From positions 1 through 64,000 of IMG/VR virus record IMGVR_UViG_3300036766_002281: 64,000 nucleotides of DNA, one strand, 5' to 3'. The notes below the pieces were generated by a model, which was given only the letters and a program-made list of their open reading frames with translations, was not told the DNA's origin and searched no databases. The stretch comes from a virus. The position numbers and the translations under genes are program-made. Positions 6,484 to 62,715 of this stretch are shown piece by piece (positions within the stretch are counted from its first letter, which is position 1; each line of letters begins with the position of its first letter).

Positions 6484-7158
6484 ATGGACAAATTCATAGA
6501 CATGATAGGACAGATTTTTGATCGATTAACTGTATTGTCTTACCATCATACCGATAAATGGGGGCAAGCGTATTGGCTATGCCGCTGCCTCTGCGGCATA
6601 GAAGTTGTTGTCGCAGGAGGAGATCTTCGGCGCGGCCATTCTAGATCTTGTGGTTGTTTAAGCAGAGAACGTTCTACAACTCACGGATTATCAGATCATC
6701 CACTTTACGATGTTTGGTGGAATATGAACTATCGGTGTAACAATCCAAACGAAGATTCTTATCACAACTACGGTGGCCGATCTGTTCCGATCGCTGTCTG
6801 CGATCGTTGGCATCGTGACAATCTAGAAGGGTTAGCTAACTTCATCTTCGACATGTATCCAACAGATAGGTTTGGAAACCAATACAAAGCAGGCTTGTCC
6901 ATCGAAAGAACAGAAAACAATTTAGGCTACAACGCCGAAAACTGCACCTGGGCCACTTGGGTAGAACAAAACAATAATACAAGAAGTAATAAACTAGTTA
7001 TTTTACCAGATGGAGAAGCAATAACATTAGCTCAGTTATCAGAAAAAACTGGAATTAAATGGACTACTTTAGAATATAGAATCTTTGTACGAAAATGGCC
7101 TATCGAGAAAGCCTTGACAACTCCAGTCAGGAAATGCTCTTCTAAAAACATTTCTTGA
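6484..7158 (+). CDS. HNH-type free-standing homing endonuclease-like protein
   Basis: Same motifs as 666..1337, with long identical nucleotide blocks. Confidence 0.75.
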   Translation: MDKFIDMIGQIFDRLTVLSYHHTDKWGQAYWLCRCLCGIEVVVAGGDLRRGHSRSCGCLSRERSTTHGLSDHPLYDVWWNMNYRCNNPNEDSYHNYGGRSVPIAVCDRWHRDNLEGLANFIFDMYPTDRFGNQYKAGLSIERTENNLGYNAENCTWATWVEQNNNTRSNKLVILPDGEAITLAQLSEKTGIKWTTLEYRIFVRKWPIEKALTTPVRKCSSKNIS

Positions 7159-14161: not shown

Positions 14162-16691
14162 TACTGATTACGCTTTAGGAGAAATAAAGGAATCTACGAG
14201 TACGACTACGACTATACCTACCAAATGTCCGTTCTGTAAATCTGAACTTATGACAGTAGACAATGAGCCAGGAAGTACGATTGTAATGTGTAAGGAATGT
14301 GGATATGCAGGTTTAATTCCAGATCATCCTCTGGCACTTGAACGAGGGGCAGAAATGAAAACAGCAGATACAGCAGATAGAGTTTCCGAAGCTCTTAAAC
14401 GAACTTACTACGAATCTAAAACAGTGCAAGGGGTATTTGCAAATTCAGTTGAGTTTGTAGACTGGGTTTACAATCGTTGGGGAGATTGGTTGCATTCAGA
14501 AGAAGAGTTAGAAAGAAAATTTGATGGAGATACCTGGGAATTTATTAAATCAAAGATGCTTAACAAGAAAGACTTTTTAGAAGCATTGTTAGATAATCTT
14601 CCAGAACCACTAGATCCGAATAGAGAAAGTAGTATGAAAACTACTTCAGCTGACGAACATGGAGTAAGAGAACTTTTACTGTATATTGCTCAAGATGATG
14701 AACTTCAGAATAGGATTGTAAACCCACTGAAGGAGAGACTTACACGTAAAATTGAAAAAGGAATATTCGATTTAGATCGTTCTATTTCGGCTTGGCAGAA
14801 CGTAGTTGAGAAATCAACGCATAAGTATATGATGGATTTTGGAGATCCAGGAGAGAAAGTAAGTAATATATTTAATCGATCTACTAGAACTAAGGTGGCT
14901 GAAGAGTTGGCTGAAGCATTTAAAGTAGAATATGACTTGGGTCATGATCGTGAACGTGAACCTGCCGCTATAGTGGAAAAGGAAGGGGCACCAGAAGCAA
15001 GTGATGAAACTCTTTGTTCAAGGTGTCAGCATATGAAGGGAATTCATGATCCAGATGGATGTAGTGGATCAACAGGAGTCGTAGAAGATCCACTAGAATG
15101 TTTTTGTCAAGGGTTTGTAGAGGAAGGAGCATCTAGGACTGCCGCAGATGAATCTATCTTCAATGAGTTAGTAGATAAGATTGAAAACGAAATTAAAAAT
15201 ACGGAGTCAATGAGTTACTTCAATGTAACTCAACCGCTAAAAGAAATTGGAAAGTTATTTGGTAAGGATCGTTTGAATCAAGCTATTGACCAACTTGGTT
15301 TAGAAGATTACGGTATAAGAAAAGTTTCTCACGTATCAGAGTTAGACTCTTGGCTAATTCGTTCTAATTTTACAACAGTCAAACAGGCAGGTGAAGGCGA
15401 GGTTGAAGTAGACCCAAGAACTGGAAAATGGTTTTGGTTTTCTATCGATCCAGCTCAAGAGGGTAAAGAGGGATTTGAGACTGAAGATGAAGCACGAGCA
15501 GATATGGCAAAATTTATGCAACATGTCCATGGAAGTAGAAAGCAAGCTGCTGGTGGGGAAGAAGCTGCTCGGGCAGTCTGGGAGGCACTTGACGACGCAG
15601 GAAGAAAAGAAGAGTTGGAAGCCATTGGAGTTCTAAAACTTGAGACATCAAAAAAGGATTGGATTGCTCTTCCACCAGTTACAAGACAGAGACTTACGGA
15701 GAAGTTGGAAGGAGTTCCCAAACCTGTAGAAGAGGGAAAGCAGTATCAAATCAAAAGACCTGATGGGTTTCACGTTTACACTGTAACGGACATTCGTGGT
15801 AACCTGATAGAGTTCATGGACGAGCAGGAGAAAAAGTTTACCGCCCCGAAGGAGACCATAGAACAAGGACTTGCCAAAGGACAGGTTAAGGAAGCGTATA
15901 TTAACCAGATAGCCGGGGAATTTTGTCCCCAGTGTAAGATTCCTGTACAAATGGTGGGAAGGGAAGATAATCTCCTTATTATGGGTTGTATAGCCTGTAG
16001 CTACAAAACAGCAGAGTACGATAATGAGTTTAAGATCCAATCTGACCTAGCTGACCAAAAGAGTTTACAAAAAGAAGTAAACAAAATTGATATGTTGTTT
16101 ATGCATGATAAGAAGTATGCTACTAATCCTGCGGCACAAAAGTGGTTAAACGACGCAGAAGAATTGTTGGGGCAATGCGAAAAAGCTTATTGGGTTAACG
16201 CTGTAAATGAAGATCCTCAAGGAGTAGCAGAATTAGTTAGAAAAGGTTTGGATATTATAGAACAAATGAAGAGACAGTCAAGAGGTAAAACAGCAGAGTA
16301 CGAGCGAGAGCGAGAGCGAGAGCAAGAATATGCTGTTCTAAATAGCACGTCCAGTGTTTTGACAAAGAATCCAATGGCGAATGAACTGATAGAAGATTGG
16401 GAAAGCCCTCAGCATGGAGAACCTTCGCTTCATTCTTATCTGCTTATTAAAACGAATAAGTATACTACTCCATTTGTTTTAGTAGGGTCAGGAAAAGAAT
16501 ACTCATCAGTAGGAGATCATATTCTATTATGGGATGATGGGAATGGGAGCACTAGATTTCCATTTAGAGATTATAGACCAGGTTATCAAAGACCAGCTGC
16601 ACGAGGAGAAGTTATTGCCACTGCTTACGGAGCAGAAGAAATCAAAACTAACTTTCCTCCCGGTCGATATAAAATGATGGTTATGAAGTAG
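14010..16691 (+). CDS. Acidic multi-segment polyprotein-like protein (start uncertain)
   Basis: 893-codon ORF of short domains, including Zn ribbons, separated by KSA/KTA/RTA/KQA/KEA. Confidence 0.7.
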   Translation: MSKKGLKITMTNEYEYEHEVRMRMRMRMRMRKPKPKLKSADQQQYHQNLFNTDYALGEIKESTSTTTTIPTKCPFCKSELMTVDNEPGSTIVMCKECGYAGLIPDHPLALERGAEMKTADTADRVSEALKRTYYESKTVQGVFANSVEFVDWVYNRWGDWLHSEEELERKFDGDTWEFIKSKMLNKKDFLEALLDNLPEPLDPNRESSMKTTSADEHGVRELLLYIAQDDELQNRIVNPLKERLTRKIEKGIFDLDRSISAWQNVVEKSTHKYMMDFGDPGEKVSNIFNRSTRTKVAEELAEAFKVEYDLGHDREREPAAIVEKEGAPEASDETLCSRCQHMKGIHDPDGCSGSTGVVEDPLECFCQGFVEEGASRTAADESIFNELVDKIENEIKNTESMSYFNVTQPLKEIGKLFGKDRLNQAIDQLGLEDYGIRKVSHVSELDSWLIRSNFTTVKQAGEGEVEVDPRTGKWFWFSIDPAQEGKEGFETEDEARADMAKFMQHVHGSRKQAAGGEEAARAVWEALDDAGRKEELEAIGVLKLETSKKDWIALPPVTRQRLTEKLEGVPKPVEEGKQYQIKRPDGFHVYTVTDIRGNLIEFMDEQEKKFTAPKETIEQGLAKGQVKEAYINQIAGEFCPQCKIPVQMVGREDNLLIMGCIACSYKTAEYDNEFKIQSDLADQKSLQKEVNKIDMLFMHDKKYATNPAAQKWLNDAEELLGQCEKAYWVNAVNEDPQGVAELVRKGLDIIEQMKRQSRGKTAEYEREREREQEYAVLNSTSSVLTKNPMANELIEDWESPQHGEPSLHSYLLIKTNKYTTPFVLVGSGKEYSSVGDHILLWDDGNGSTRFPFRDYRPGYQRPAARGEVIATAYGAEEIKTNFPPGRYKMMVMK

Positions 16692-16697
16692 ACGAGA

Positions 16698-17084
16698 ATG
16701 ATGACCCAGATTTCAGATTCTATTTTTATTGGAAATAGTCAAGATCATAAACGACTTGATGTTCTAAAAACAACTGGTATAACCGCAGTATACAATGTCG
16801 CAGCAGATTTGAATACTGAATGGTGTACTGAAATTGTTTACGTTAAATGTGGTTTATGGGATGGACCTGCTGGCAGTAATAGAATTGAGTTAGCTGTTGA
16901 TCTGCTTGAGAAGTTAGTCGATGGTGGAGAAAGAGTTCTTATTCATTGCCATGAAGGATGCAATCGTAGTCCATATATTGTGGCAAAGTATTTAGCGAAA
17001 AAGAATGGAACTGATTGGAAGAAAGAGTTTGAAGGCATTAAAGTCAAAAGACCACAAGTCTATATTAAAGATTGGATGAGTTAA
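16698..17084 (+). CDS. Dual-specificity (Cys) protein phosphatase
   Basis: IFIGN, GITAVYNV, VLIHCHEGCNRS (CX5R). Confidence 0.85.
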   Translation: MMTQISDSIFIGNSQDHKRLDVLKTTGITAVYNVAADLNTEWCTEIVYVKCGLWDGPAGSNRIELAVDLLEKLVDGGERVLIHCHEGCNRSPYIVAKYLAKKNGTDWKKEFEGIKVKRPQVYIKDWMS

Positions 17085-17125
17085 GTTACGTTAAGTTACG
17101 TTAAGTTACTAAATGGAGTAATCAA

Positions 17126-17695
17126 ATGCGATTAGAAGAATTAAAAAGTAGTGATGATTTTGAGAATGATGATGATTACTATGAGTACATACATGAATGG
17201 GAAACAGCCGACTGGAAAGATATTGAAGGTTTAATGAATGCTATTGATCATGCGCTGGGAGCTCATGGTCTTGAGTTGATTCAAGGTAAAGGTGAAGATG
17301 ATAATTACTACGTTAAAGTGGAACAACTTGGGGAAGGAAAAGACAAAGGAAAACGATCTGAGATCGAAGCTAGTCTTATGACTAAGATGAAGATCTTTCA
17401 ACGGGAAGCCGTAAGATTAAATCGTAATCCAAAATCAGTTAAAGAATTTAAGCTTTGGTTAGAAGCTCAAGAACAGAGACAAGCTATTGGTAAACAGAAA
17501 GGTCCAGACGTTGGGGAAACGATCGAAGTCTATGACTTTAGAACTGACGAGATGCTTCCTGCAGAAGTTACTAGTAAACCAAGTCTCAACCAAGATACTG
17601 GGCTCGAAGAAGTGGATGTGGTCTTCGAGGATGGTATGGAACACTACGCGGTCTGGAATGATGATGAAATGATGTGGGAATCAGGGGAGCTATAG
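17126..17695 (+). CDS. Acidic protein with internal leader-module copy
   Basis: Module at 17375-17467 followed by RQA. Confidence 0.7.
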   Translation: MRLEELKSSDDFENDDDYYEYIHEWETADWKDIEGLMNAIDHALGAHGLELIQGKGEDDNYYVKVEQLGEGKDKGKRSEIEASLMTKMKIFQREAVRLNRNPKSVKEFKLWLEAQEQRQAIGKQKGPDVGETIEVYDFRTDEMLPAEVTSKPSLNQDTGLEEVDVVFEDGMEHYAVWNDDEMMWESGEL

Positions 17696-17699
17696 TTTA

Positions 17700-17885
17700 A
17701 TGATAAACAGCATAAAAGTTTCAGATATAATTGATCGTAGTGATTCTCCAAGAGCAGAGTTAGATAAGCATATCGACAAAATAAACTTATCTGCTGATGA
17801 GAAAGAACGCTTACGAAAACTAATTAGTGACGCATTAGATCAATCCTACCAAGAAGGAATTTGGGCAGGACAGGAATCTAGATAG
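17700..17885 (+). CDS. Hypothetical protein
   Basis: Short ORF filling the gap between neighbours. Confidence 0.55.
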   Translation: MINSIKVSDIIDRSDSPRAELDKHIDKINLSADEKERLRKLISDALDQSYQEGIWAGQESR

Positions 17886-17896
17886 GGAAATGTGAG

Positions 17897-18559
17897 ATGA
17901 AAAAATACGAGCTAACCAACGAGACAACTCAATCTGCTGCTGGAGCTACTTTGTATAGGATCAAATCCTTAATCAAATCATCAGCAGATTTTGGCATTAT
18001 CGATTCCGGAGAACTAGGCGGGTTTGTTGAGAGTGAGGACAATTTAGCACATGATGGTCAATGCTGGATTTCTGATAATGCACAAGTCTCTGGCAACGCA
18101 CGGGTCTTTGGAAGGGCACAGGTCTCTGGAAATGCAAAAGTATTCGGCGACGCGTGGGTGGCTGGCGAAGTACAAGTCTATGACAACGCCCAAGTCTATG
18201 GAAATGCGCGGATCTCTGGGAGTGAGAAAGTTTATGGGGATATGGAAGTCAAAGGAGACGAGAAATCAACCCAGAAGGAGGGTAAAAATATGCTAAACAA
18301 GATCGAAAAGTTTCAACGTCAAGCAAAAGCTCTTGGACGAGATGAGAACTCTGTTGAAGAGTTTAAAATGTGGTTGAAGGCAGAAGAGGGAGATTCACTC
18401 AAGTTTGAAACCACAAGTGATGAAGAAGTCCATAGCAATATAGATGACATCATATCCGATTTGAATGATGTAAAGAGTTTAGGCGGTAGAGACGATATCA
18501 AAGAAAGATTACGTAATATCAAACATACTTTAGATGACATTATTAATTACTACAGATAA
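17897..18559 (+). CDS. Hexapeptide-repeat (beta-helix) protein fused to a leader cassette
   Basis: ELGGFVESEDNL then (N/D)A(Q/R/K)V(S/F/Y)G hexapeptides; internal SD AAGGAGG and ATG at 18290 starting a leader copy. Confidence 0.75.
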   Translation: MKKYELTNETTQSAAGATLYRIKSLIKSSADFGIIDSGELGGFVESEDNLAHDGQCWISDNAQVSGNARVFGRAQVSGNAKVFGDAWVAGEVQVYDNAQVYGNARISGSEKVYGDMEVKGDEKSTQKEGKNMLNKIEKFQRQAKALGRDENSVEEFKMWLKAEEGDSLKFETTSDEEVHSNIDDIISDLNDVKSLGGRDDIKERLRNIKHTLDDIINYYR

Positions 18560-18569
18560 GGGAGATAAC

Positions 18570-18869
18570 ATGCTATCAAAAATCAAAGAATTTCAACGTC
18601 AAGCAAAAGCTCTTGGACGAAATGCCTACAGCATTGAAGAATTCAAACTCTGGCTGGATGCTCAGACCAAAACCGCTGAAAAACCAGTTGAAACAGATCT
18701 AGAACTAGCTGAAGTGGCTTTAGCTAAAGCAACGGCAGCTTATTTGGATGCCCTATTACAAGACTTCGGCAAAGATGTTGTTTTAGATGAGGTAGAAGAA
18801 GCATTGGATGAGCTGACCTCTGAAACTTTTGGTCTTTGGGCAAAAGAAAAGTTTCCTTTAGATATTTAG
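18570..18869 (+). CDS. Leader-module protein with acidic payload
   Basis: GGAGATAAC-ATG; leader then QTKTA. Confidence 0.8.
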   Translation: MLSKIKEFQRQAKALGRNAYSIEEFKLWLDAQTKTAEKPVETDLELAEVALAKATAAYLDALLQDFGKDVVLDEVEEALDELTSETFGLWAKEKFPLDI

Positions 18870-18930
18870 GTGATGTCAGATCTAGAAAACCATCTCAGGA
18901 AGAGGAATAACCCGAACTAGGAGTAAGATT

Positions 18931-19458
18931 ATGTCAAACGTAAACGCAAACGTAAAAGATGTAGCTCATTATGAAGAGTACCAAAAGGAAGTAGAAACAC
19001 ATAAATTTGTTAGCTGGGGTATAGGTATAGGTATAGGATTAGAATTAGATAAACCTTATATTGTGGCTCCTTTAGTTGGCAAACTAGTTTTTTGTGATGA
19101 ACAAGTTGATTTGGATTCTGATTATCCATGGGATAAAAAACTTCTTGCCCCCGATCCAAGAAAAAGCCCTACTTCTCGTAGAGCAGCAATGATGTATAAA
19201 TTTGTTACCTGTGGAAGTAGTGTAAAAAAAGCAAGCGAAGAAATAGTAAAAAATATAAGTATGGTTTTGAATTGTTACCCAGATTTTCAGCTGGTAGTAC
19301 AAATTGCTTTGGCAGAACCTTATGAGCTTAGACGTTCTGTTGATGGGACAAAAACTTCTCGGTCTTTCGAGAAAATCGAAGGGGAATCCTACGTTGAAGA
19401 TTGTGGGTTTGCCTGCGTTGTGCAAGGTTGTATTGTTAAGAATCCTAGATGGGAATAG
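18931..19458 (+). CDS. Hypothetical protein
   Basis: SD AGGAG, 175-aa ORF. Confidence 0.6.
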   Translation: MSNVNANVKDVAHYEEYQKEVETHKFVSWGIGIGIGLELDKPYIVAPLVGKLVFCDEQVDLDSDYPWDKKLLAPDPRKSPTSRRAAMMYKFVTCGSSVKKASEEIVKNISMVLNCYPDFQLVVQIALAEPYELRRSVDGTKTSRSFEKIEGESYVEDCGFACVVQGCIVKNPRWE

Positions 19459-19491
19459 GTAAAAAGGAAATTACTAGACTAGGGAAATAAA

Positions 19492-19719
19492 ATGACACTT
19501 TCTGAGCTAAGGACATTGATTGGTAATAAATATCTTTATACTGATTTCTATACTGATTGGGAAAATAAAGGGTATGGATTTAGTTTTTCTATAATAGAAG
19601 ATTCTAAAAATAAAAAAATTTATACTTTTCCAGGATTGTTTCCTGATTACAAAAGTAGAGATTTGACAGTTAAGTATATGAGACAAGTGTTTGTGCCTGA
19701 TCCTGAGGAAATAATATGA
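19492..19719 (+). CDS. Hypothetical protein
   Basis: ATGA overlap with next gene. Confidence 0.55.
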   Translation: MTLSELRTLIGNKYLYTDFYTDWENKGYGFSFSIIEDSKNKKIYTFPGLFPDYKSRDLTVKYMRQVFVPDPEEII

Positions 19720-21305
19720 TAGAAACTATAATCTTTAAAGATCTTTTACGTTTAACTGCTGATAAAGAAGGGTTTGTAGCCCTAAACACTTCTCGGCATA
19801 CAAACAAGTGGGTAGCTGGACTTCCAGAAGAGTTGTGGGAAAGTATCTACGAGGTCAAAACAGGTGATAGAGTTGATCTAGCTTTTGTATTTAGACCAGA
19901 TGCAAAGTACGATCATGCGAAACTTGCTCTTTGGCGTAATCATTTTGGAGATGCCCCTAGATTAGAAGATTACAAAGCAGACCATGCTGAAGAGTTTGGT
20001 ATTGACGAAGAAGAGTTAGAACAGTTTGAGAACGCACAGGGAGAGAAAGAGGAAATCTATCGCAATGATCGTTACCAGGCTACCAACAAGGATGCCGCTA
20101 ATTGGCTGTTGAACATTCCAATGAAGTTTCTTGAACGGTATTTCTATTCACGTACTACTCCAGAAGAGATTGTAAGCATCAGGCACGAACTGATCAATAC
20201 CCTAGAAGGATTTGAAGCACAGCTCGAGCAGATTGGAGTCGACCCATCGGAAGTAAAGGAACTGGAATCTGAGTTTGAGACTGTAGCCACCCCTCAACAA
20301 ATGGATAGGGCATTAGAAGATTTGTACAAGTTTGGGAAAGACCATGGCGTCTGGTTTGAAAGCACTTTAATGAAAGGTAGTGCAGTTACGGCTTCCAGAG
20401 TTTATAAACGATTGGTAGATGGGTGGAATAGAATAGTTGAACCAGATTGGAGTCCGAAGATGGATAAAAGTCTGAATACAGTAGTAATTGAATTCTATGA
20501 TGGGCGGACGGAAAATGTTTTAACTGAAGAACAGTTAGATGAGTTCTTGGAAGAACAATTCTCTTACAATGATATGAATGCTGGAAAGGGTTTTAAAGTT
20601 TTTAAACGAATGAGTTATCAGGATTATCAAGTTGCGGTAAACGAAATGATTGATGAGATCTTTCCCGGGCATAATATTGGATCAAGCGTGCTAGATAACT
20701 TGTGGAGAGATGGGTACAAGATTGCAACAGTAACTTTGTACAATCGGGTTTGGTATGATAAGTGTGCCCCAGATCTTAATCAACCAAGTAGTTTTGTTGA
20801 GCCAAAGATTGTGGGAATGAACCGATATTATGAAGTAGTACAAGCTCTCGATCAAATGAATACTGCGATTGGGCATTCCGTATTGAATTGTTTCAGCGAC
20901 CTTATCCTGTTTAAGAAATCAAACGCTGTAGGAAGAAAAGCACATGATCAGGATTCAGATACTGTTAGTTCCCTTGACTTGATACTCTTGAACAAGACTG
21001 TAGAAGCATTAAATAGCAGAGGACTTTCGGTAAAGGTAGAAGACTATATCGATTGGCTGACTGGAAATGTGACAAAAGGAAGTTCCCGTTTCGACCAGGC
21101 TATTAAACTCTTCTTAACAGAACCAGTTTATAACACGTTTAAGCATTTGAATCTTGTAGATGCTAAGGTTAAATTCGAACTAGGTCTTGGCCCACCTACG
21201 GTAGACGGGATCGATGTAAGTATGAGTCCAGAAAAAGAGTCACTACAGTTACTGCCGGGATTTACTGATGCAACAGTGGAGCCGCCAGTAGTAATAACTA
21301 GGTAG
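19716..21305 (+). CDS. Acidic multi-segment hypothetical protein
   Basis: 529 aa; LTA, VTA, KIA and RKA linker-like sites. Confidence 0.7.
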   Translation: MIETIIFKDLLRLTADKEGFVALNTSRHTNKWVAGLPEELWESIYEVKTGDRVDLAFVFRPDAKYDHAKLALWRNHFGDAPRLEDYKADHAEEFGIDEEELEQFENAQGEKEEIYRNDRYQATNKDAANWLLNIPMKFLERYFYSRTTPEEIVSIRHELINTLEGFEAQLEQIGVDPSEVKELESEFETVATPQQMDRALEDLYKFGKDHGVWFESTLMKGSAVTASRVYKRLVDGWNRIVEPDWSPKMDKSLNTVVIEFYDGRTENVLTEEQLDEFLEEQFSYNDMNAGKGFKVFKRMSYQDYQVAVNEMIDEIFPGHNIGSSVLDNLWRDGYKIATVTLYNRVWYDKCAPDLNQPSSFVEPKIVGMNRYYEVVQALDQMNTAIGHSVLNCFSDLILFKKSNAVGRKAHDQDSDTVSSLDLILLNKTVEALNSRGLSVKVEDYIDWLTGNVTKGSSRFDQAIKLFLTEPVYNTFKHLNLVDAKVKFELGLGPPTVDGIDVSMSPEKESLQLLPGFTDATVEPPVVITR

Positions 21306-21340
21306 AACAACGAAATGTATAGAGCTGCGAACATGTACGC

Positions 21341-21544
21341 ATGAAGGAGTTTATGCTTATGTTCAAGTTCACTGACGATGATGAAGTTTTGTTACGTTGC
21401 TTGAATGCCTATTTAGATTGTCCAGGATGTAAAGGGCAGTTAGTCATTACGCACATAGAATTTTCGAATACATTTTTGAGATTTGTTCCAGTTAAGAGCT
21501 GTCTATCATGCAAATCAGATTATTTTATTACTGAGTCAGATTAG
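21341..21544 (+). CDS. Small Zn-ribbon protein
   Basis: CPGC and CLSC pairs. Confidence 0.55.
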   Translation: MKEFMLMFKFTDDDEVLLRCLNAYLDCPGCKGQLVITHIEFSNTFLRFVPVKSCLSCKSDYFITESD

Positions 21545-21892
21545 GAGCAAGCAAGCACGCACAAATGGAATGCCTACATTTAGAACTAATTAGAATCGAC
21601 AAGGAAGACAGTTGGCTGTTCTACCAGTGTAAGAATTGTCATTTCGAAACGGAAGTGAAGGAAACTGAATTTTACAAATCAATGACAGAAGAAGAGAGAA
21701 AACAAGTTCACGAACCTTTAGATGGAAATTAATTAAAGTTAATAAACCTAAGGAGAAATCAAACGAACGTGTTCAATCCTACTCAACCTGCTAGTAAAGT
21801 ATCTAAACCGAAAGCAAATATTGTAAGACCATTTGAAAAGATAATGAGACCTAAAACAAAAGTAATTAAAATAAAATTTGAAGGGAATTAAC

Positions 21893-22213
21893 ATGCTATC
21901 AAAAATAAAAGAATTTCAACGTCAAGCAAACGAACTTAAACGGGATGAGAACTCAGTGGATGAGTTTCGTCTTTGGTTAGAAGCTAAGACAGCAGAAGAA
22001 AAAGTTTTTCCTGAAAATACACTTCCTAGACGTATCCAACCAGGTATTCGACTTGAAATACCTAGTGGAGATATAGTAAAAGTTGTAAGTAAGCCATATG
22101 ATTATATGGACAATACTGTGATTGATATAGTTTTTGATAATGGGTTGGAAACTACTGCTATATGGTATCCTGAAGATAGTAGATGGGATGCCGTAGAAGA
22201 GCCAACTGAATAA
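21893..22213 (+). CDS. Leader-module protein; payload resembles the C-terminal domain of 17126..17695
   Basis: Leader then KTA; KVVSKP...IDIVFDNGLETTAIW versus EVTSKP...VDVVFEDGMEHYAVW. Confidence 0.8.
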   Translation: MLSKIKEFQRQANELKRDENSVDEFRLWLEAKTAEEKVFPENTLPRRIQPGIRLEIPSGDIVKVVSKPYDYMDNTVIDIVFDNGLETTAIWYPEDSRWDAVEEPTE

Positions 22214-22271
22214 GAAGAGCTTATCAACAACGAAGCGGAACCAAGACCAAGACCAAGACCAAGGAGATAAC

Positions 22272-22580
22272 ATGCTATCAAAAATCAAAGAATTTCAACG
22301 TACTGCAAAAGAGCTGGATACTGATCCAAATTCAATAGAACAGTTCAAGATGTACCTTGAAGCAGAATATCCTGAAGGTGGAGAAGGTTCTGCAGACGAA
22401 GTAGATTTTGCCATCGAGAAGGTAATTTCTAGTTTGTATGAATTCAAAAATGGGTTGGATAAATTAAGATATACTAACGAATCTATTTTGGAAGAGTTAG
22501 AAAATATGGATATGGTATGGGAAGTATTTAGAACTGCTGTTACAACCTTTGTTGAATCAAACACAGAAGGGGAATCTTAA
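22272..22580 (+). CDS. Leader-module protein, acidic helical payload
   Basis: AAGGAGATAAC-ATG plus leader. Confidence 0.8.
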   Translation: MLSKIKEFQRTAKELDTDPNSIEQFKMYLEAEYPEGGEGSADEVDFAIEKVISSLYEFKNGLDKLRYTNESILEELENMDMVWEVFRTAVTTFVESNTEGES

Positions 22581-22589
22581 GGAGATAAC

Positions 22590-22895
22590 ATGTTAAATAA
22601 AATCAAAGAATTTCAACGTCAAGCAAACAAACTTAAAAGAGATGCCAACAGCGTTGAAGAATTTCGTCTTTGGTTAGAAGCCGATCAAAAAATGATAGAA
22701 CTTAATGCTGGAATTGTTCCTAGCACAATTAAGCAAGTTGACGAAGTCTATTCTCGATTCAAAGGTGCGAAGAATGATCTTACTAAATTGTACCACGAAC
22801 TCAAGGGGGAAGACGCTGTGGATCTTTCAGCAGTTCTTACTTCCATGGATAAGGCCATGGAAGGCCTTGAAACTTTATTACAGAGGTATGCCTAA
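22590..22895 (+). CDS. Leader-module protein, helical payload
   Basis: AAGGAGATAAC-ATG plus leader. Confidence 0.8.
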   Translation: MLNKIKEFQRQANKLKRDANSVEEFRLWLEADQKMIELNAGIVPSTIKQVDEVYSRFKGAKNDLTKLYHELKGEDAVDLSAVLTSMDKAMEGLETLLQRYA

Positions 22896-22896
22896 T

Positions 22897-22986
22897 ATGT
22901 TAAACAAAATCAAAGAATTTCAACGTCAAGCTAGCGAGTTAGGAAGAAATCCAAACAGCGTAGAAGAGCTTAAGTTCTGGCTGTAA
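22897..22986 (+). pseudogene. Payload-less leader module (29 aa)
   Basis: MLNKIKEFQRQASELGRNPNSVEELKFWL then TAA where most copies have GAA. Confidence 0.65.
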
Positions 22987-23030
22987 GCAATACCGCTATT
23001 GTTATAAACCTATTTGTAGAAAGTGAGGGA

Positions 23031-23432
23031 GTGAATCGATATAAGTATAAAAACGGGGCAATAGTTCGCATACTTACGTTTTTAACAGTTTTAATTCTTT
23101 CTACGAGTATTATAGCGGTACAAGCACGAACACTTCTCTCTACGGTGACTTTACTTAAATTTGAGGATGATTACGATCAGAAGGACGTAGCAGTCATGGC
23201 AGTTGTAGATCGAATAGCAAAAGTTGATGGTGCTCACGGTGGTTTTTATTACGAAGTGAGTTTATATCCAGATGTAGTAGCAGTAGCTTTTACAACACAG
23301 ATAAGTAAAAGGTTAAAGGTTGGAAGCCTAGTTGAAGTCCGTGGACGTTATTTTAAGTCGAACATGTTCATGGGGAACGTTTACAAACGATTTATTATTG
23401 CAGAAAAGCTTCTGGTTCTTGACGTAAGTTAA
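23031..23432 (+). CDS. Exported or membrane-anchored protein, possible OB-fold
   Basis: N-terminal hydrophobic segment ending VQA; LKVGSLVEVRGRY strand pattern. Confidence 0.55.
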   Translation: MNRYKYKNGAIVRILTFLTVLILSTSIIAVQARTLLSTVTLLKFEDDYDQKDVAVMAVVDRIAKVDGAHGGFYYEVSLYPDVVAVAFTTQISKRLKVGSLVEVRGRYFKSNMFMGNVYKRFIIAEKLLVLDVS

Positions 23433-23594
23433 ACAGTAATAAATCAAACGAAAGCATCTTAGTTTGCGGACCGAAAATTGAGAAACACCAGCAAAAACGG
23501 TATAACAAAGTAAATCTAAAACTGAGAAAGTAAATCTACGAATAGAATGAAATCAATAGAATTAGAGCCATAAAGGAAATCTAAAAGGAAACAA

Positions 23595-24116
23595 ATGTTA
23601 TCTATTATTGGAGAATTTCAAAGGGAAGCTGTTAAGTTGGCCAAAGATCCTAACTCGGTTGAGGAATTAAAGAGATTTGCTTATGCAAGAATGTCTTTTA
23701 TTCATTATTCTAAAACTGAGATAGAAAATTTAGGAAGTATGAGAGTAAATTCAATTCTTATATCTATTGCGGGACTGAACGATGATTTTGCTGAAGTAGA
23801 TGATTCTCGTTTTAAAGATGTATTACGTTTAAGATTTAGTGATGTAACAAGGGACTTTGGAAAATTTTTAGCTTTTAGAAAAAATCAAGCTGAACAGATT
23901 ATCGCTTTTGTAAATAGAAACATTCCAGTTGATTTTGTTTACATCAACTGCGAACAAGGCAGATCTAGATCGGCAGCTATTCATTCAGCTTTAGAAAAAA
24001 TTTATCATGCAAAAGAGGTTAATTTCCTTCATTGTAATTTACAGGTCAAGGAGACTTTGTTAGATGTTATCAAAAATCAAAGAGTTTCAGAAGTTAGCAC
24101 AAGAATTAGACCGTAA
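23595..24116 (+). CDS. Leader module fused to a protein-tyrosine-phosphatase-like domain
   Basis: Leader; ILISI, LRLRFSDV, INCEQGRSRSAAI (CX5R). Confidence 0.8.
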   Translation: MLSIIGEFQREAVKLAKDPNSVEELKRFAYARMSFIHYSKTEIENLGSMRVNSILISIAGLNDDFAEVDDSRFKDVLRLRFSDVTRDFGKFLAFRKNQAEQIIAFVNRNIPVDFVYINCEQGRSRSAAIHSALEKIYHAKEVNFLHCNLQVKETLLDVIKNQRVSEVSTRIRP

Positions 24117-24522
24117 TCCAAACAGCGTAGAAGAGCTTCGGCTTTGGTTAGAGGCTCAAACCAAAACGGCTCAGGATCTTAGTTTTACTTCGGATGTTGA
24201 TGATGTTGATATTCGACCTCGACCAAAAGATGTTGATTTTGTAAATGCAAAAGCCAAAGTATTCTGGGATCTGCAAATGGACGCCCGGGAATATGGGATT
24301 AAGGATATCTACCCAACAGTTAGAAAAGTTGTGATTTCAGGAACGTATGAGTACGCCGTAGATATTGATGAAGAGGCAAGAGAAGAAGAGTTTGAGCTCT
24401 CCATTACAGCGGAAGAATGGAATATAAAAGAGGACTTAATGGGTGCGAAATTTGCTAACGGGTTGTACCCTTCTACAGTAAACGTAGACCAAGAATCAAA
24501 ACAATGTACAGTTGAGTTTTGA
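24064..24522 (+). CDS. Leader-module protein, acidic beta-rich payload
   Basis: Leader then QTKTA. Confidence 0.8.
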   Translation: MLSKIKEFQKLAQELDRNPNSVEELRLWLEAQTKTAQDLSFTSDVDDVDIRPRPKDVDFVNAKAKVFWDLQMDAREYGIKDIYPTVRKVVISGTYEYAVDIDEEAREEEFELSITAEEWNIKEDLMGAKFANGLYPSTVNVDQESKQCTVEF

Positions 24523-24543
24523 TAGATAGAACGTTACGAACGA

Positions 24544-24936
24544 ATGATATTAGATCTGAAACAATTTAAAAACGATCTTAAGCATTTGAATCGACATGGA
24601 AGTTCCCGGTGCGTTTTAGTAAATGTTTACATGATTTCAGATTCAGAGCTCTATCACCGTTTTGTTACAGAACGTTTGAGAGTAGCATTTCCACTCGTTC
24701 TAGTTGTGGAAGAATCAAAAATTTTTAGTGGTTTTTCAAACGATTCTTATAGTAAAATTATGGATAAAATATACAATCGAGAGATTGTACTGTTTTCATT
24801 TGAGAATGCTGATGTAGGATTTGGTTATAATATTGAGCATCTTCGTAGTAAAGTGCAAGCTGTTGTTGATGAAAGTTTTAGACAAAGAATAGACAAGACC
24901 TTTAAACGTATGGAGAGTGAACATGTTGTCAGATGA
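24544..24936 (+). CDS. Hypothetical protein
   Basis: 130-aa ORF in operon. Confidence 0.6.
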   Translation: MILDLKQFKNDLKHLNRHGSSRCVLVNVYMISDSELYHRFVTERLRVAFPLVLVVEESKIFSGFSNDSYSKIMDKIYNREIVLFSFENADVGFGYNIEHLRSKVQAVVDESFRQRIDKTFKRMESEHVVR

Positions 24937-27088
24937 AATAGGCGGTAAACTTCTAGATCTTGAACAACGTAAAGAAGCTGCAAAAGTTAGTAATCATCTA
25001 CATACTGCAGTAGAAAAGCTCAGAGCAATAGAAGAAGCTATTTTAAAGTTTTGTACCAAACCTAGAACTTCCAGCCAGGTTATACAGCTCTTTCCTGCTC
25101 GTCCTTTTAACATCTTGGCAATCATGGAAAATCTTAGAGTTAAAGATATGCTTACTCTTGCTGCCAATAAGTATGTCACAAACGTTGAGCATAGAGAGTT
25201 TGATGTCAGCATGACTATGACAGCTGATAGACGCAGCTTTACTTCGAAGACAGAGGAAATGTGGAGCTATTCCGACCAGGAAAGCAAACGTAGGCTTCTT
25301 TCAAAAGCTCATGTAATTCCAGAGAACGTTCCCAGATTCGCAGCAGAAGAATGGGCTCATCTTCCATCATGGGTTCAGAAGGCAGTTGAATATGAGCATA
25401 AGCATCCAGCCATTTTAGCAGAAGTTGAGGGTCAGGCAGAATATCCAGATCGCCCAAGTATTCAAACTATAAAAGATGCAGACGGACAATTCTACGCAGA
25501 AGAAGTTGAAGAGTCTGGAGGAGATTGGGGAGTATTCGATACCGAAGTAGGACATTGTTTTGCTACTTACTCAGGATCAGCTAAAGCAGAAAAAGAAGCG
25601 GATAAAATGAATCAAGAACATGGGCTAGGAAAGTATAAAAAGAAAAAAGCTGATGACGCTCCTGCAACTATAAATGTCAATGAGCAATCGCAACTTCAGC
25701 AAGTTGAAGGTGCAGAAGAAGATCACGGTCCTTCGTGTGAGATCTGTGGTTATGAATTTACCGAATCCCCTCAATTTGGAAACTCAGATATATGCCAACG
25801 TTGTGCTAAGGATCCTAACAAACGAGAACAGTATGCAAGAGATGCTGGTTACGGTAAATGGCGGGGTGGGGACGAACGTAGTCTTGATCAGGCAGTTTCG
25901 GGCGAGATTGTTCCCTTCGGGGATAAATGGTGGAAGTTTACAGGTAGAATGACTTACAAACAATTGCGACCTGGAGTGATTTTTGGAGCCACTTATAGAG
26001 CCTTTAACGCCGGGTTTACTATTGAAGAGTTTCTTGGCTATTCTGGAAGAGATGTTAAGTATGGAGAAGGTGGTAAAAAGTATGATACCATCCAAGAAGT
26101 TTTTAAAGCTGAAGGAGTTAATTCCTTAAAGGCATTAGAAGCAAAACAAGATGAAGGGGAATACGGTTTTCATACCTACATGTGTACCAAGGAGTTGAGT
26201 GGTAAGCTGGAAGAGGGATGTTACTACTACATTAGCGAAGGTAGATGGAGTAGAGGATCTGGTGCTGAGGCATTAAGCTTCTGGACAGTTGAAGAAATGG
26301 CAAAGCCAGAAAAGTATGAGGATGAAGAAGGTGGAGCCTTCGCACCAAGAAAGCATTCTCCTAGAGATCTATCGGTATCTGATCTTAAGGAAAGCCGGAG
26401 ACGAAGACAAGCTTGTGATAAGGGGCAATTTATCGAGCTTACATCAGTACAGGATGTTGATACAGGAGTAACTACAGATAATCCAATAGAGCTCCAGGAA
26501 GTGGTTGACTCTGGATTGAGTGCCAATTACAAAGCTACGTTTATTACCAATGGTAGATCCAGAACTGCAATGTTGTCTACCTTGCCTGTAAAGAAGATAA
26601 AAGTTAAAACAGCAGAACCATTAATTCGACAAGTTAAATCGGCAGATTCCAGTTTCGAAGAACATGTTAAGAAATTAATGCAAGAGGCTTTCAAGTATTA
26701 TTCTGAACAGACAAAAATTATTCCAGACACAGTAGATATCTGGAACGACGTTTTGAACAGTTTGTCTAGAGAACGTGGTACTACCTTAACCAAAGAAGAA
26801 GAGAATGAAGTCTGGGCTATTATTACTGGCGAGGAACCAGAAGGCGGAGGCGAAGACGAGATTGATATCAGTGGCTGTGGAACACAGATTAAGCAATTCC
26901 AAAGTGAAGCCAAACGATTAGGTCGTAATGCTAACAGTGTTGAAGAACTTAAACTATGGATGGAAGCTGACAACGCTGAAAAAGAAGAACCTTTCAAATG
27001 GAAACACAAAACTTATGAAGAACCACCACCTACAGCAGAACAAATATTACAAGAAATGGAAGATAAAGAATTTGATTCGTTCTGGTAA
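24917..27088 (+). CDS. Acidic multi-segment polyprotein-like protein with a C-terminal leader copy
   Basis: MTA, KKA, RQA, KTA and KSA linkers; module at 26876-26968. Confidence 0.75.
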   Translation: MNMLSDEIGGKLLDLEQRKEAAKVSNHLHTAVEKLRAIEEAILKFCTKPRTSSQVIQLFPARPFNILAIMENLRVKDMLTLAANKYVTNVEHREFDVSMTMTADRRSFTSKTEEMWSYSDQESKRRLLSKAHVIPENVPRFAAEEWAHLPSWVQKAVEYEHKHPAILAEVEGQAEYPDRPSIQTIKDADGQFYAEEVEESGGDWGVFDTEVGHCFATYSGSAKAEKEADKMNQEHGLGKYKKKKADDAPATINVNEQSQLQQVEGAEEDHGPSCEICGYEFTESPQFGNSDICQRCAKDPNKREQYARDAGYGKWRGGDERSLDQAVSGEIVPFGDKWWKFTGRMTYKQLRPGVIFGATYRAFNAGFTIEEFLGYSGRDVKYGEGGKKYDTIQEVFKAEGVNSLKALEAKQDEGEYGFHTYMCTKELSGKLEEGCYYYISEGRWSRGSGAEALSFWTVEEMAKPEKYEDEEGGAFAPRKHSPRDLSVSDLKESRRRRQACDKGQFIELTSVQDVDTGVTTDNPIELQEVVDSGLSANYKATFITNGRSRTAMLSTLPVKKIKVKTAEPLIRQVKSADSSFEEHVKKLMQEAFKYYSEQTKIIPDTVDIWNDVLNSLSRERGTTLTKEEENEVWAIITGEEPEGGGEDEIDISGCGTQIKQFQSEAKRLGRNANSVEELKLWMEADNAEKEEPFKWKHKTYEEPPPTAEQILQEMEDKEFDSFW

Positions 27089-27186
27089 GTCTTAATTAAA
27101 AATGATGGAAGAATATTAATTCGAAAGGATTAAAACAATTAACAAACTAACAATCAACATTAAACGAAACGAAGGAGAACACGACT

Positions 27187-27591
27187 ATGTACGCTTTCAT
27201 CGCAGCTTACAAACTTTATATTACCAATGGTGGTTCTGGATCAGCAACAAGTTTAACTGACTTCTTGACCTGGTTTAATGGCATTAGAAATGCCCTTACT
27301 CAGGAGCAGCAGATTTATATTGATCTTCTGAGTAATTCTGCTTATGCAACGTTCAGAAACAAATCTTCTGCTGTAATTCAAGAAGCAGTGCATGGTCTTG
27401 AATTTATTGATAACGTTGATAACTATACAGATCCAGCAAATACTGCCACTGCCTATCCAACAACTGTTTCAGGAAGTACTGTGATGGCCACAGCATTTAT
27501 TAAGGCAGAGCTGGCAATGTTTGATAAGGTTATTAACGAGAATGGGCAATCGAGTAATAGTCAGGTAAATACTCTTCAAACGCTTTTATAA
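27187..27591 (+). CDS. Hypothetical protein (possible virion protein)
   Basis: Strong SD GAAGGAG; A/T/S/N-rich composition. Confidence 0.6.
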   Translation: MYAFIAAYKLYITNGGSGSATSLTDFLTWFNGIRNALTQEQQIYIDLLSNSAYATFRNKSSAVIQEAVHGLEFIDNVDNYTDPANTATAYPTTVSGSTVMATAFIKAELAMFDKVINENGQSSNSQVNTLQTLL

Positions 27592-27632
27592 GCGTAAGTG
27601 ATCAAACGAAAGAAAGGTAGGCAATTAAATCC

Positions 27633-27929
27633 ATGCTGGACCAAATCAAAGCATTTCAAAAGGAAGCTAAAGCTCTTGGTCGTAATGAGAACTCTGTGGA
27701 GGAGTTCAAGCTATGGATTGAGAGCGAGTCTCAGTCTCAATCGCAGACCAAGCAAGCTGCTGAACCAGAGGAAGATTACGATGAAGATAGAAAAAAGGTA
27801 ATGGGAGATATCAAAAAGGAAATTGATTTTGTGTTAGAAAATTCATTTCCAGAGTTAGAGAACTTAGAGACTGTTATGTTCTTTGAGGACAATGATCCTG
27901 TTATAAAAGTAAGATTTATAGGTAGGTAA
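27633..27929 (+). CDS. Leader-module protein
   Basis: Leader then SQSQSQTKQA. Confidence 0.8.
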   Translation: MLDQIKAFQKEAKALGRNENSVEEFKLWIESESQSQSQTKQAAEPEEDYDEDRKKVMGDIKKEIDFVLENSFPELENLETVMFFEDNDPVIKVRFIGR

Positions 27930-27936
27930 AATACCA

Positions 27937-28239
27937 ATGCTGAATAAAATTAAAGAATTTCAACGTCAAGCAAACGAACTTAAACGAGATCCAAACTCTT
28001 TGTCTGAGTTCAAACTCTGGCTGGATGCTCAGACCAAGACAGCTGCTTCAGACACTGTAAAAGCTATTTTCACTTTAGAAATCAGAGATGATGATACTGG
28101 ATATCCTGTTGATGTAGATTACAGTGAGTATGAGGAAATGATGGAAAAACTTGAACAGATACTTATGAGAGCAAGATACAAAGGAGAAGGGTTAAACGCA
28201 GTAATTACTTCCCATGCTGATTCTGGTTGGCAAGGGTAA
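27937..28239 (+). CDS. Leader-module protein
   Basis: Leader then QTKTA. Confidence 0.8.
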   Translation: MLNKIKEFQRQANELKRDPNSLSEFKLWLDAQTKTAASDTVKAIFTLEIRDDDTGYPVDVDYSEYEEMMEKLEQILMRARYKGEGLNAVITSHADSGWQG

Positions 28240-28252
28240 ACTGTAAGAGCCT

Positions 28253-29275
28253 ATGAATTACAAATACCTGATGGTAAAAGTGGCTCATTTCCAGCACGAT
28301 GCCCATAATCCGAATTCGATAGATGAATTTAAACTTTGGTTAGAAGCCAGAAACAGGCATGCCTGGATTGAACCACTGGGGGATGAAGATACTTTAAGAA
28401 CGTATCTGAAAGAAAACCATCCAGAATCTTTGGATGGTAACCATCCTGTGTATCTTTTTGTGGATGAGTCGTTTGAAGAACATAAACTGATGTTAGTAGG
28501 CTCCACGCCTATTACTCTAAACTTTTTGAAGAACTTTAAAAGATTGTATAATGAGACAGAGCAAGAACGTGAAGACGAAGCGGCAGAAAAAGAAGCACTA
28601 CCACCAGTTCTATCAAATAAAAAATCGTATAAAAATGGAGCGCCCAACATGTTAAAAGAACTAAATCAATTTCAGAAGGAAGCAAAACAACTAGGAAGAA
28701 ATGAGAACTCTGTTAATGAGTTTATATTATGGCTGGAAGCAAGATCGCAATCTAAAACGGCATTAAGTGATGAGGCAAACAAATTCATTAGTGACAAAAT
28801 TAGTAAGCTTCATGACGAAGGTTATGAAGGGGATCAAGCTATTGCTATAGCTCATGAGTATGCCAGAGATGCTGGCTACGATGTTCCAAGTCCAAAAAGT
28901 TCTTATACAAAAACGAAAAAGAAAGCTGATCCAGATCCAGAACCTGAGGCAGACTTTGGACCAGACGAAGACTTGGGGGATCAAATAGAAGACGTAATGG
29001 AACATGAGGATGACCCAGAAAAGGAAGCCAAGCAGTTGATGGCTCTTTGGGAAAAAGGTGAGATGAGTTTGAAAGAGCTTCACCACCATATCTTAGAAGA
29101 ATATGGTACGGAGCAGGAAGAAGAAAACATTGAAGACATCGTTTTTGATCTAATTGACAAGCACGTCAAAGAGCTCAAGGGCGAAACCGAAGATGAGAGC
29201 GAGAGCGAGAGCGAGCTCGAAGAAGAGGAAGAGGAAGAAGGAGTAGGCGAAGAAGTTGGAGTACCAGAAAAATAG
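28253..29275 (+). CDS. Two fused leader cassettes with extremely acidic tail
   Basis: Shortened leader then RHA at the N-terminus; second leader with GGAG SD at 28649 then SKTA. Confidence 0.8.
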   Translation: MNYKYLMVKVAHFQHDAHNPNSIDEFKLWLEARNRHAWIEPLGDEDTLRTYLKENHPESLDGNHPVYLFVDESFEEHKLMLVGSTPITLNFLKNFKRLYNETEQEREDEAAEKEALPPVLSNKKSYKNGAPNMLKELNQFQKEAKQLGRNENSVNEFILWLEARSQSKTALSDEANKFISDKISKLHDEGYEGDQAIAIAHEYARDAGYDVPSPKSSYTKTKKKADPDPEPEADFGPDEDLGDQIEDVMEHEDDPEKEAKQLMALWEKGEMSLKELHHHILEEYGTEQEEENIEDIVFDLIDKHVKELKGETEDESESESELEEEEEEEGVGEEVGVPEK

Positions 29276-29276
29276 G

Positions 29277-29663
29277 ATGAAAATAATCGTGTACAAGACT
29301 AGGGAAATAGAGAAGATAATTTCGTTTTTCCAGCATTTACCCGATGACTGGGATAGTTACGGGAGCCCACGTCCTAGTGCTAAAACTATTTATTCGTTAG
29401 AAAAGTTTACATCAAAGTTCTTTAAATTTTTCTATCTTCGAAATTCTGTTTATGCTATTCCAGGTGGGGGTATCCAACTTGATTTTAGGTATGAGCAGAA
29501 AGTTTTAGGATTTGAAATCTTTTCCAACGGGGAAATTCGTTATGAGCAGTATATAGGTAATAATCTGCTTTCCTGCAACGATCCTATTTGTAATAAGATT
29601 TCTTTGAAGGAAGATCTGGCAGATGCTCAGTTTAATGCTTTACTAAACTGGTTGATGGAGTAG
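29277..29663 (+). CDS. Hypothetical protein (start 29256 or 29277)
   Basis: LPDDWDSYGSPRP...PGGGIQLDF pattern. Confidence 0.6.
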   Translation: MKIIVYKTREIEKIISFFQHLPDDWDSYGSPRPSAKTIYSLEKFTSKFFKFFYLRNSVYAIPGGGIQLDFRYEQKVLGFEIFSNGEIRYEQYIGNNLLSCNDPICNKISLKEDLADAQFNALLNWLME

Positions 29664-29670
29664 CGAGTAA

Positions 29671-30015
29671 ATGATTCATGCGATAAAGGTTTTTCAACGT
29701 GAGGCAAGAGAGTTGGGTAGAGATGCCAACAGCGTTAAAGAGTTAAAACTTTGGTTTCAGGCAATGACTGACGCTAAGTTTGATTACATTTTTGAGAAGC
29801 ATCCAGAGTTTAAAACGCAATCAAGTCATGAAATAATACAAATACTTAAGAATAGGTATCATCTGGACGGAGAAGAGATTACAGATTTTTTAAAACGTTT
29901 TATGCTAAGAGATGAAAAAGAAGCAGTAGCTCCTTATGATGTGGATCAGACGGAGGGTCGGCCAGGACATTCTTATGAAGAAATTCGTGATGTGTTAACT
30001 GGATTAGGAATATAA
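29671..30015 (+). CDS. Leader-module protein
   Basis: MIHAIKVFQREARELGRDANSVKELKLWFQA. Confidence 0.8.
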   Translation: MIHAIKVFQREARELGRDANSVKELKLWFQAMTDAKFDYIFEKHPEFKTQSSHEIIQILKNRYHLDGEEITDFLKRFMLRDEKEAVAPYDVDQTEGRPGHSYEEIRDVLTGLGI

Positions 30016-62614: not shown

Positions 62615-62715
62615 TATCACCACAAAATGGAAAGGAGGAAATCTAACGTCTTTCCATACCTGTTTATCTAATGGTAGGTAAACAGAGGTCAACCAGCAAT
62701 CTGAGGAGACATTCT

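Follow-up and report, generated by a model that had tools for sequence, protein, structure and literature searches.

An array of small genes in an uncultured large sediment phage carries one ~31-residue peptide, here called the tag, joined to a series of mostly unrelated and mostly very acidic payload domains. The array lies within the window, that is, the whole stretch of 64,000 nucleotides under study, which corresponds to positions 1-64,000 of the 74,629-bp IMG/VR record IMGVR_UViG_3300036766_002281. The tag occurs 15 times, is maintained by selection on the peptide, is combined with different payloads here and in other phages, and matches no named family. It is best read as a portable docking module that would take interchangeable cargo to one common partner, a reading to which we assign a probability of roughly 0.55.

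The tag is a protein module under selection

A hidden Markov model (HMM) seeded by 11 copies found with a regular expression was run at full sensitivity against all six frames of the record. It returned 15 tag domains, all on the plus strand, with independent E-values between 2e-23 and 1e-7 (starts at 17375, 18290, 18570, 21893, 22272, 22590, 22897, 23595, 24064, 26876/26882, 27633, 27937, 28268/28271, 28649, and 29671). These are exactly the 15 copies that a first-pass annotation of the window had listed; a 16th copy was found nowhere in the 74,629 bp, the next best match having E>1. In the alignment of the copies, mean column identity is 64%, and four positions (F8, Q9, A12, and S21) are invariant. 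The net charge of the tag is slightly positive. At the nucleotide level, the copies are on average 62% identical, and the synonymous difference (pS) of 0.73 is near saturation, compared with a non-synonymous difference (pN) of 0.29. Thus, the tag is a selected protein module and not a DNA repeat.

At least 10 copies start their own open reading frame (ORF) downstream of a Shine-Dalgarno (SD) site, which agrees with the N-terminal placement described initially. Longer open frames enclose three copies (17375, 18290, and 28649), of which the last two each come with an SD site and an ATG of their own, and the first with an ATG and no clear SD site. N-terminal placement does not hold for copy 26876, which has no ATG, lies at about residue 654 of a 723-aa ORF, and is, thus, truly internal. 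Copy 22897 is an orphan, with a stop after 29 codons.

The DNA encoding the tag has also been subject to turnover. Tag copies have exact runs of 24-39 nt in common, arranged as a patchwork: copy 18570 shares its 5′ end with copy 22272, its middle with 18290, and its 3′ end with 27937. Contigs assembled from the source run break at tag copies, tags are more alike within a contig (0.60) than between contigs (0.54; permutation p 0.008), and in orthologous pairs, tag and payload have diverged to a roughly similar extent (35-81% for the tags, 35-71% for the payloads). Together, this indicates that gene conversion and cassette exchange act on top of the selection at the protein level.

The payloads are diverse, small, and mostly acidic

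That the payloads are mostly unrelated and very acidic, as stated in the first-pass annotation, was borne out, but their lengths range from 39 to 177 aa and not from 65 to 210 aa. The predicted isoelectric point (pI) is between 4.1 and 5.0 for 13 of 14 payloads; the exception is the payload at 23595 (pI 9.0). Only one pair, 17375/21893, is related (E 4e-7). The payload at 23595 corresponds to phrog_5614 (3e-15), with the profile beginning where the tag ends; because the match is confined to residues 32-152 of the protein, phrog_5614 is a family without the tag. Pfam and PHROGs revealed no toxin or immunity families on the scanned carriers, nor did Pfam on 64 homologues, the payloads being small and acidic, with one phosphatase-like domain among them. 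An anti-host role of the payloads is probable by analogy, considering their acidity, the neighboring genes (phosphatases and Lar-like zinc ribbons), and the precedent of the T4 internal proteins and the polyvalent proteins (PMC3012670, PMC5512222).

The tag is predicted to form a helical hairpin of a new family

An AlphaFold2 model of the 18570 protein, for which the tag copies served as the alignment, contains a helix at residues 2-15, a loop at 16-21, and a second helix at 22-35, with a predicted local distance difference test score (pLDDT) of 84-91. A flexible linker (36-42) and two payload helices follow. The model thus confidently predicts the helix-loop-helix, that is, the helical hairpin, that had been anticipated from the letters alone, and the conserved residues of the tag coincide with the helix caps and the amphipathic face.

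No family for the tag was found in Pfam, PHROG, or NCBIfam. The Pfam and PHROG scan of carriers covered 10 ORFs of the window, nine of which bear the tag and together account for 10 of the 15 copies; Pfam assigned zero families to 64 homologues. Searching the PDB with the tag sequence gave no match, the ESM Atlas no usable one, and Foldseek against PDB and BFVD nothing at E≤0.001, its top, non-significant rows being helical-hairpin dimers such as ESAT-6/CFP-10 and ROP. In the model, the general shape of the tag (two short helices joined by a loop) may recall that of the ~35-aa SAP, HeH, and Rho_N motifs, but Foldseek gave no significant match to any solved domain. The SAP (PF02037) and Rho_N (PF07498) profiles found nothing in the record at E≤10, whereas both match in control genomes, the SAP matches all falling below that profile's cut-off. 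Accordingly, the earlier view that the tag is not a named family has held, no match to a characterized or DNA-binding domain having emerged from these searches. By sequence, the tag appears to be a previously undescribed small domain family.

The family in other phages shows modular reuse

Among 1.84 billion representative proteins, a search with the profile (cut-off E≤1e-3) yielded 76 representative clusters that carry the tag, ~60 of which come from outside this window. A search of metagenome proteins with an HMM had been suggested in the first-pass annotation, in the expectation of variable payloads, which is what these further clusters display. Of 78 family domains, 51 are N-terminal, 23 internal, and four C-terminal (in the homologues P0034, P0045, P0054, and P0066); about half of the internal ones open with methionine and are possibly separate starts. 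As internal and C-terminal copies occur, the tag is not an obligate N-terminal leader. Two tags are present in the protein encoded at 28253-29275 and in P0043, P0070, and P0072, and tagged cassettes are found inside larger proteins in the window (24917-27088) as well as in P0025 and P0074. Four other assemblies encode two or three tagged proteins each. Tagged proteins lie together on contigs of 30,139 bp (P0073/P0074), 27,645 bp (P0017/P0018), 20,670 bp (P0016/P0025), and 15,565 bp (P0009/P0084/P0086), and P0043 is encoded on one of 208,797 bp.

Exchange of payloads can be followed in individual cases. P0017 and P0018, encoded on the same 27.6-kb contig, have an identical tag and differing payloads; in P0050 and P0065, divergence sets in exactly where the identical tag ends; and the payload that is free-standing in P0019 is fused behind a 770-aa protein in P0025. 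Unrelated payloads in the window, identical tags on different payloads in other uncultured phages, mosaic tag copies, and an orphan together show that the locus is plastic and that diverse payloads are interchanged next to a conserved tag, as had been proposed.

The payload at 24064 recurs in P0079-P0081, from other phages, with 64-83% identity, behind a tag that lacks helix 1 and the loop and retains the K-T-A triplet described below. The N-terminus of these proteins ('...SYSVKDFVEASHKTA') equals the tag minus helix 1 and loop. By their sequences, P0079-P0081 appear to represent a natural truncation series of the tag module. Because they keep the 24064 payload behind a truncated tag, a payload can exist without an intact tag, which seems to be dispensable for at least one payload family.

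No true family member was detected in IMG/VR (searched with P0074, with patterns derived from the profile, and with three degenerate DNA patterns), in JGI metagenome contigs, in GTDB genome contigs, or, by tblastn, among INPHARED phages; all pattern matches failed the HMM.

A K-T-A-type motif marks the junction between tag and payload

A [KR][TQH]A triplet is present within 11 residues after the tag in eight of 14 copies; the frequent KTA-type triplet noted initially is therefore real for these, but absent within this distance from the rest. In eight of 14 copies, [KR]-x-A falls into the predicted linker, and in the AlphaFold2 model, the motif is located where helix 2 ends or the linker begins. 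Among the 78 family domains, 27 have the motif within 14 residues after the tag. Throughout the 12.5-30 kb block in which the array resides, [KR][TQ]A was observed 25 times versus 4.1 expected from shuffles (~six-fold), with ~8 of the 25 falling within the tag itself (FQRQA); an 893-aa ORF alone contains six (0.73 expected). Elsewhere, the count is 16 versus 12.1 expected; the protease-scaffold protein contains three (1.1 expected) and the major capsid protein (MCP) none. Judged from these sequence counts, [KR][TQ]A appears to mark junctions in this block and resembles a motif at which modules are joined or processed. Within 12494-30015, [KR][TQ]A typically precedes acidic residues.

Docking to one partner is favored over the alternatives

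As a docking module, the ~31 residues would comprise an amphipathic helix 1, an LGR(D/N)xNS loop capping helix 2, and an amphipathic helix 2, which would present a face kept by all paralogues and relatives (F8, Q9, A12, L15, G16, R17, D/N18, N20, S21, E24, and W28). Because a hairpin of just two helices lacks its own core and the same face is kept everywhere, we infer that all carriers go to the same partner. A single recognition event would then serve a changing set of cargo proteins, with recombination in the DNA of the tag both joining new cargo and homogenizing the tags. Of the two options in the first-pass annotation, loading into the head and the broader one of docking on a common partner, the latter is favored by the evidence. 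The partner may, tentatively, be the assembling prohead or its core, which by analogy would entail encapsidation, co-injection, and release at the [KR]-x-A linker; only slightly less likely is a different hub inside the infected cell, made by the phage or belonging to the host. In the capsid version, the hairpin would bind the prohead core or shell and bring a changing set of acidic anti-defense proteins into the head; cleavage at the [KR]-x-A linker would remove the tag, and the cargo would accompany the DNA on injection. That large phages possess a new, transferable signal for capsid loading that acts in this manner is a possibility that we hold with considerable reserve.

Several observations weigh against these interpretations, most of them against the capsid in particular. 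Among deposited phages, only Virus Rctr197k shares the head module (MCP 55%, portal 51%, TerL 36%, and protease 31%), and it contains neither the tag (best score 4.8 bits) nor any short module common to at least three ORFs, although the same shared-module test recovers 14 of 14 carrier ORFs in the present genome. As Rctr197k has the head module without the tag, participation of the tag in this head-assembly system is modestly disfavored. The HMM detected no counterpart of the tag in the scaffold (57565-60456), MCP, or portal; the enrichment of [KR][TQ]A is limited to the 12.5-30 kb block and does not extend to the head proteins; and a K-x-A near the N-arm of the MCP is not conserved in Rctr197k. 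The link between tag and head drawn in the first-pass annotation was, thus, not supported. The distance of the array from the head genes, on the other hand, says little by itself, because the genes of the T4 internal proteins are likewise remote from the head genes. Docking in general is weakened by the homologues of the 24064 payload, which retain 64-83% identity in spite of lacking helix 1 and the loop, and the partner itself is a postulated one.

Self-association would also account for an amphipathic hairpin. The hairpins would pair into four-helix bundles, rendering the small acidic proteins di- or multimeric, perhaps as mixed paralogues, and no separate partner would be required. Besides the amphipathic helix-loop-helix pattern evident from alignment and model, the existence of two-tag proteins and the hairpin dimers among the non-significant Foldseek rows are compatible with it, and many DNA-mimic anti-restriction proteins are functional dimers. 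However, 15 paralogues with one interface would cross-pair indiscriminately, and nothing would keep a purely structural dimer interface from diverging between paralogues, yet one consensus prevails within and between phages. The single-sequence AlphaFold2 prediction for the two-tag protein P0072 was poor (pLDDT of the tags 35-60) and contained no confident bundle. On balance, self-association is unlikely. Still less probable is a nucleic acid-binding motif of the SAP, HeH, or Rho_N kind by which the payloads would be tethered to DNA or RNA of the phage or its host. The tag resembles such motifs in length and pattern (hydrophobic residues at 3-4 spacing, A..LG, loop, capped helix 2), and its slightly positive charge would fit, as would the partial profile match P0053, an 'LxxLAKELGRTP' repeat typical of homing-endonuclease-associated repeats. 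Against it stand the empty PF02037 and PF07498 searches of a record scanned with profiles that do match control genomes (SAP below its cut-off), the lack of a Pfam, PDB sequence, or significant fold match, and the strongly acidic character of the carriers as a whole.

The patchwork of exact runs, one of which includes the SD site, the assembly breaks at tag copies, and the orphan at 22897 could also be read such that the conserved 5′ segment is a recombination handle, that is, DNA homology for the shuffling of cassettes, encoding a peptide of little function. This is highly improbable: with a mean nucleotide identity of only 62% and synonymous sites near saturation, the amino acids have been kept, the same peptide consensus is found in ~60 clusters from other phages, and the conserved residues fit helix caps and an amphipathic face. 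On these grounds, a purely DNA-level role of the tag was rejected.

Were the tag an address label, it would place ~14 proteins of this phage, and dozens from others, in one functional class. The tag would then provide a sequence handle for finding accessory or counter-defense proteins that are otherwise featureless, and its single partner would be the point through which the phage manages a rapidly changing arsenal. If this partner were the prohead, the tag would amount to a packaging signal that is compact and tolerates different positions.

Organization of the individual cassettes

All cassettes are encoded on the plus strand, and their tags were identified with the HMM. The first (17375-17695) consists of copy 1 (17375-17467; E 5e-20) and a 75-aa acidic payload with a pI of 4.1; it lies inside ORF 17126-17695, the frame upstream of the tag being open for 270 nt. 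In the second ORF (17897-18559), copy 2 (18290-18382; E 6e-22) is preceded by an N-terminal β-solenoid domain (YdcK repeat PF18836, 6e-12; phrog_7964 and phrog_5070, 1e-42 on residues 1-123) and followed by a 58-aa acidic payload, and has its own AAGGAGG and ATG. Copy 3 with a helical acidic payload (18570-18869; E 2e-23) makes up the protein used for the AlphaFold2 model. Copy 4 and its 75-aa payload (21893-22213) are connected by a KTA immediately after the tag. Copy 5 precedes a 71-aa payload (22272-22580) and has an exact run of 39 nt in common with copy 3, SD site included. Copy 6 carries a 70-aa payload (22590-22895), the orthologues of which in other phages, P0057 and P0086, are tagged as well. 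The orphan copy 7 (22897-22986; E 3e-20) ends after 29 codons, with more stops beyond, and appears from its sequence to be a decayed cassette.

Copy 8 is divergent (E 8e-11) and is linked to the basic payload of 142 aa that contains a CX5R phosphatase-like motif (23595-24116); copy 9 (E 2e-22) and its 121-aa payload (24064-24522) overlap the end of this gene in another frame. The 723-aa protein at 24917-27088, for which neither Pfam nor PHROG matches were obtained, contains the internal copy 10 (26876-26968; E 1e-15) followed by a 39-aa acidic tail. Copies 11 and 12 precede payloads of 67 aa (27633-27929) and 69 aa (27937-28239), the latter with QTKTA after the tag. A 340-aa ORF (28253-29275) comprises copy 13 (28268-28348; E 1e-7), which is four residues shorter, copy 14 (28649-28741; E 3e-14) with its own GGAG and ATG, and a very acidic tail; its homologues P0070 and P0072 in other phages also have two tags. 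The last cassette (29671-30015) joins copy 15 to an 83-aa payload, whose orthologues P0049 and P0068 are tagged.

The phage genome and the neighborhood of the array

With a CheckV completeness of 43%, the record is a fragment. In the protein collection, a contig of 211,832 bp encodes the same proteins, from which it follows that the source is a large phage. Its DNA is present in sediment metagenomes of two studies; according to a comparison of read runs, a near-identical strain occurs at low depth in the second. All genes of the record are oriented on one strand. The head and packaging genes encode the large terminase (TerL, 39253-41160), an intein-bearing portal (53970-57290), a protease-scaffold fusion of 963 aa (57565-60456), and an HK97-type MCP (61388-62542). 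SbcCD, a ribonucleotide reductase, a tubulin/FtsZ homologue, and a TnpB-like protein are also encoded.

The array belongs to a block of acidic proteins (12.5-30 kb). Its tag-less neighbors in the same block, on the plus strand at 12494-17084, are multi-module proteins of 555 and 893 aa and a dual-specificity phosphatase (16698-17084; DSPc PF00782, 2.5e-15). In the 893-aa protein, Pfam matches to Lar-like zinc ribbons are weak and sub-threshold. A blastp comparison of the payloads with the large tag-less proteins (12494, 14010, and 19716) revealed no modules in common, and consensus scans for promoters and terminators found no excess over shuffles. Between the two giant acidic ORFs, 12494-14161 and 14010-16691, there is an overlap of ~150 nt that falls in a (GAGAAT)n repeat, translated as ENENEN in one frame and as RMRMRM in the other. 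Judged by sequence, the overlap (within 12494-16691) may reflect a frameshift, a fusion, or an assembly slip; contigs from the source run break at 14040-14127, too.

The heptamer AAACGAA occurs 13 times in intergenic DNA, which makes up 5.8% of the record, versus 2.0 times expected without control for intergenic base composition. Sites include 21761, 23446, 27162, 27604, 39089, 57510, 60508, and genome position 69016. As the heptamer precedes array genes and, likewise, the genes for terminase, protease, and head proteins, a role as a promoter or 5′-untranslated region element is possible.

Downstream of the array, at a distance of 3.6 kb, a tubulin/FtsZ-family GTPase is encoded (33630-34571; PF00091, 8e-36; FtsZ_C, 1e-5; weak PhuZ PHROG), which suggests organized intracellular replication in this large phage. 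A TnpB/IS605 OrfB-like transposase gene follows (34842-36011; phrog_506, 2e-123), preceded by a non-coding stretch of 270 nt. Paralogous HNH endonuclease genes (666-1337 and 6484-7158; phrog_374, 2e-63 and 7e-58) flank sbcD/sbcC, and a second intein, besides that of the portal, resides in 42355-44361. The C-terminal 2H phosphoesterase domain of a 633-aa protein (47043-48944) also matches the anti-CBASS protein Acb1 (PF23474, 1e-6). Directly 3′ of the MCP gene, 62671-63729 encodes an RRXRR domain (PF14239, 4.8e-9) at the start, followed by ~270 unassigned residues; in Rctr197k, the MCP gene is likewise followed by a homologue of this gene (29% identity). Farther downstream of the head genes, at the distal end of the record and amid otherwise unassigned ORFs, lies a gene for a family 9 glycosyltransferase (genome 70964-72055; heptosyltransferase-like, PF01075, 7e-16).

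Comparison with known systems

In the scaffolding protein of phage P22, a C-terminal helix-turn-helix coat-binding domain of ~30 residues suffices to bring fused cargo into the procapsid. The tag is likewise a (predicted) helical hairpin of ~30 residues that is also placed away from the N-terminus. There is, however, no match in sequence or fold, and the scaffold region of the present phage (57565-60456) is devoid of a tag-like segment.

Polymorphic toxins and the MuF-toxin fusions of temperate phages, the latter of which have been proposed to travel in the capsid (PMC3482391, PMC5576092), resemble the array in that a conserved domain, used there for trafficking or anchoring, precedes C-terminal cassettes that vary and are swapped through recombination. 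Unlike in those systems, neither MuF, RHS, LXG, nor any other known trafficking domain was found by Pfam in the scanned ORFs and the 64 homologues, and recognizable toxin domains or immunity genes are lacking. Moreover, the many cassettes form a tandem series of genes, each full-length and translated on its own, in contrast to the single complete gene accompanied by orphan tips that is seen in polymorphic toxins. With the polyvalent proteins of phages and conjugative elements, an arsenal proposed to be injected with the DNA (PMC5512222), the locus shows a resemblance in the acidic multi-module proteins of 555, 893, and 723 aa, the phosphatase, the weak Lar-like zinc ribbons, and the tagged cassettes that are fused into larger proteins. 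It differs in that most carriers have a single small payload, in that an associated peptidase was not found, and in that typical Pfam domains are absent at cut-off, the zinc ribbons of the 893-aa neighbor being sub-threshold.

The internal proteins of T4, in which a short conserved capsid-targeting sequence precedes diverse anti-host proteins of ~100-200 aa encoded in a variable locus (PMC3012670), bear no sequence relation to the proteins described here, nor did PHROG (10 ORFs scanned), Pfam, or NCBIfam reveal a head or internal-protein family. Compared with the T4 sequence, the tag is approximately three times longer, is a predicted hairpin rather than one short helix, and is not confined to the N-terminus (51 of 78 domains are N-terminal); the payloads are acidic. 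Both systems have in common a tag that is separable from its cargo, a variable locus, and, possibly, a processing site after the tag (PMC3012670). If the tag does load capsids, it would constitute a second, unrelated solution to the role of the T4 capsid-targeting sequence, which could be used for packaging cargo into HK97-fold capsids; either way, it is an undescribed small domain whose modular reuse is unusually clear.

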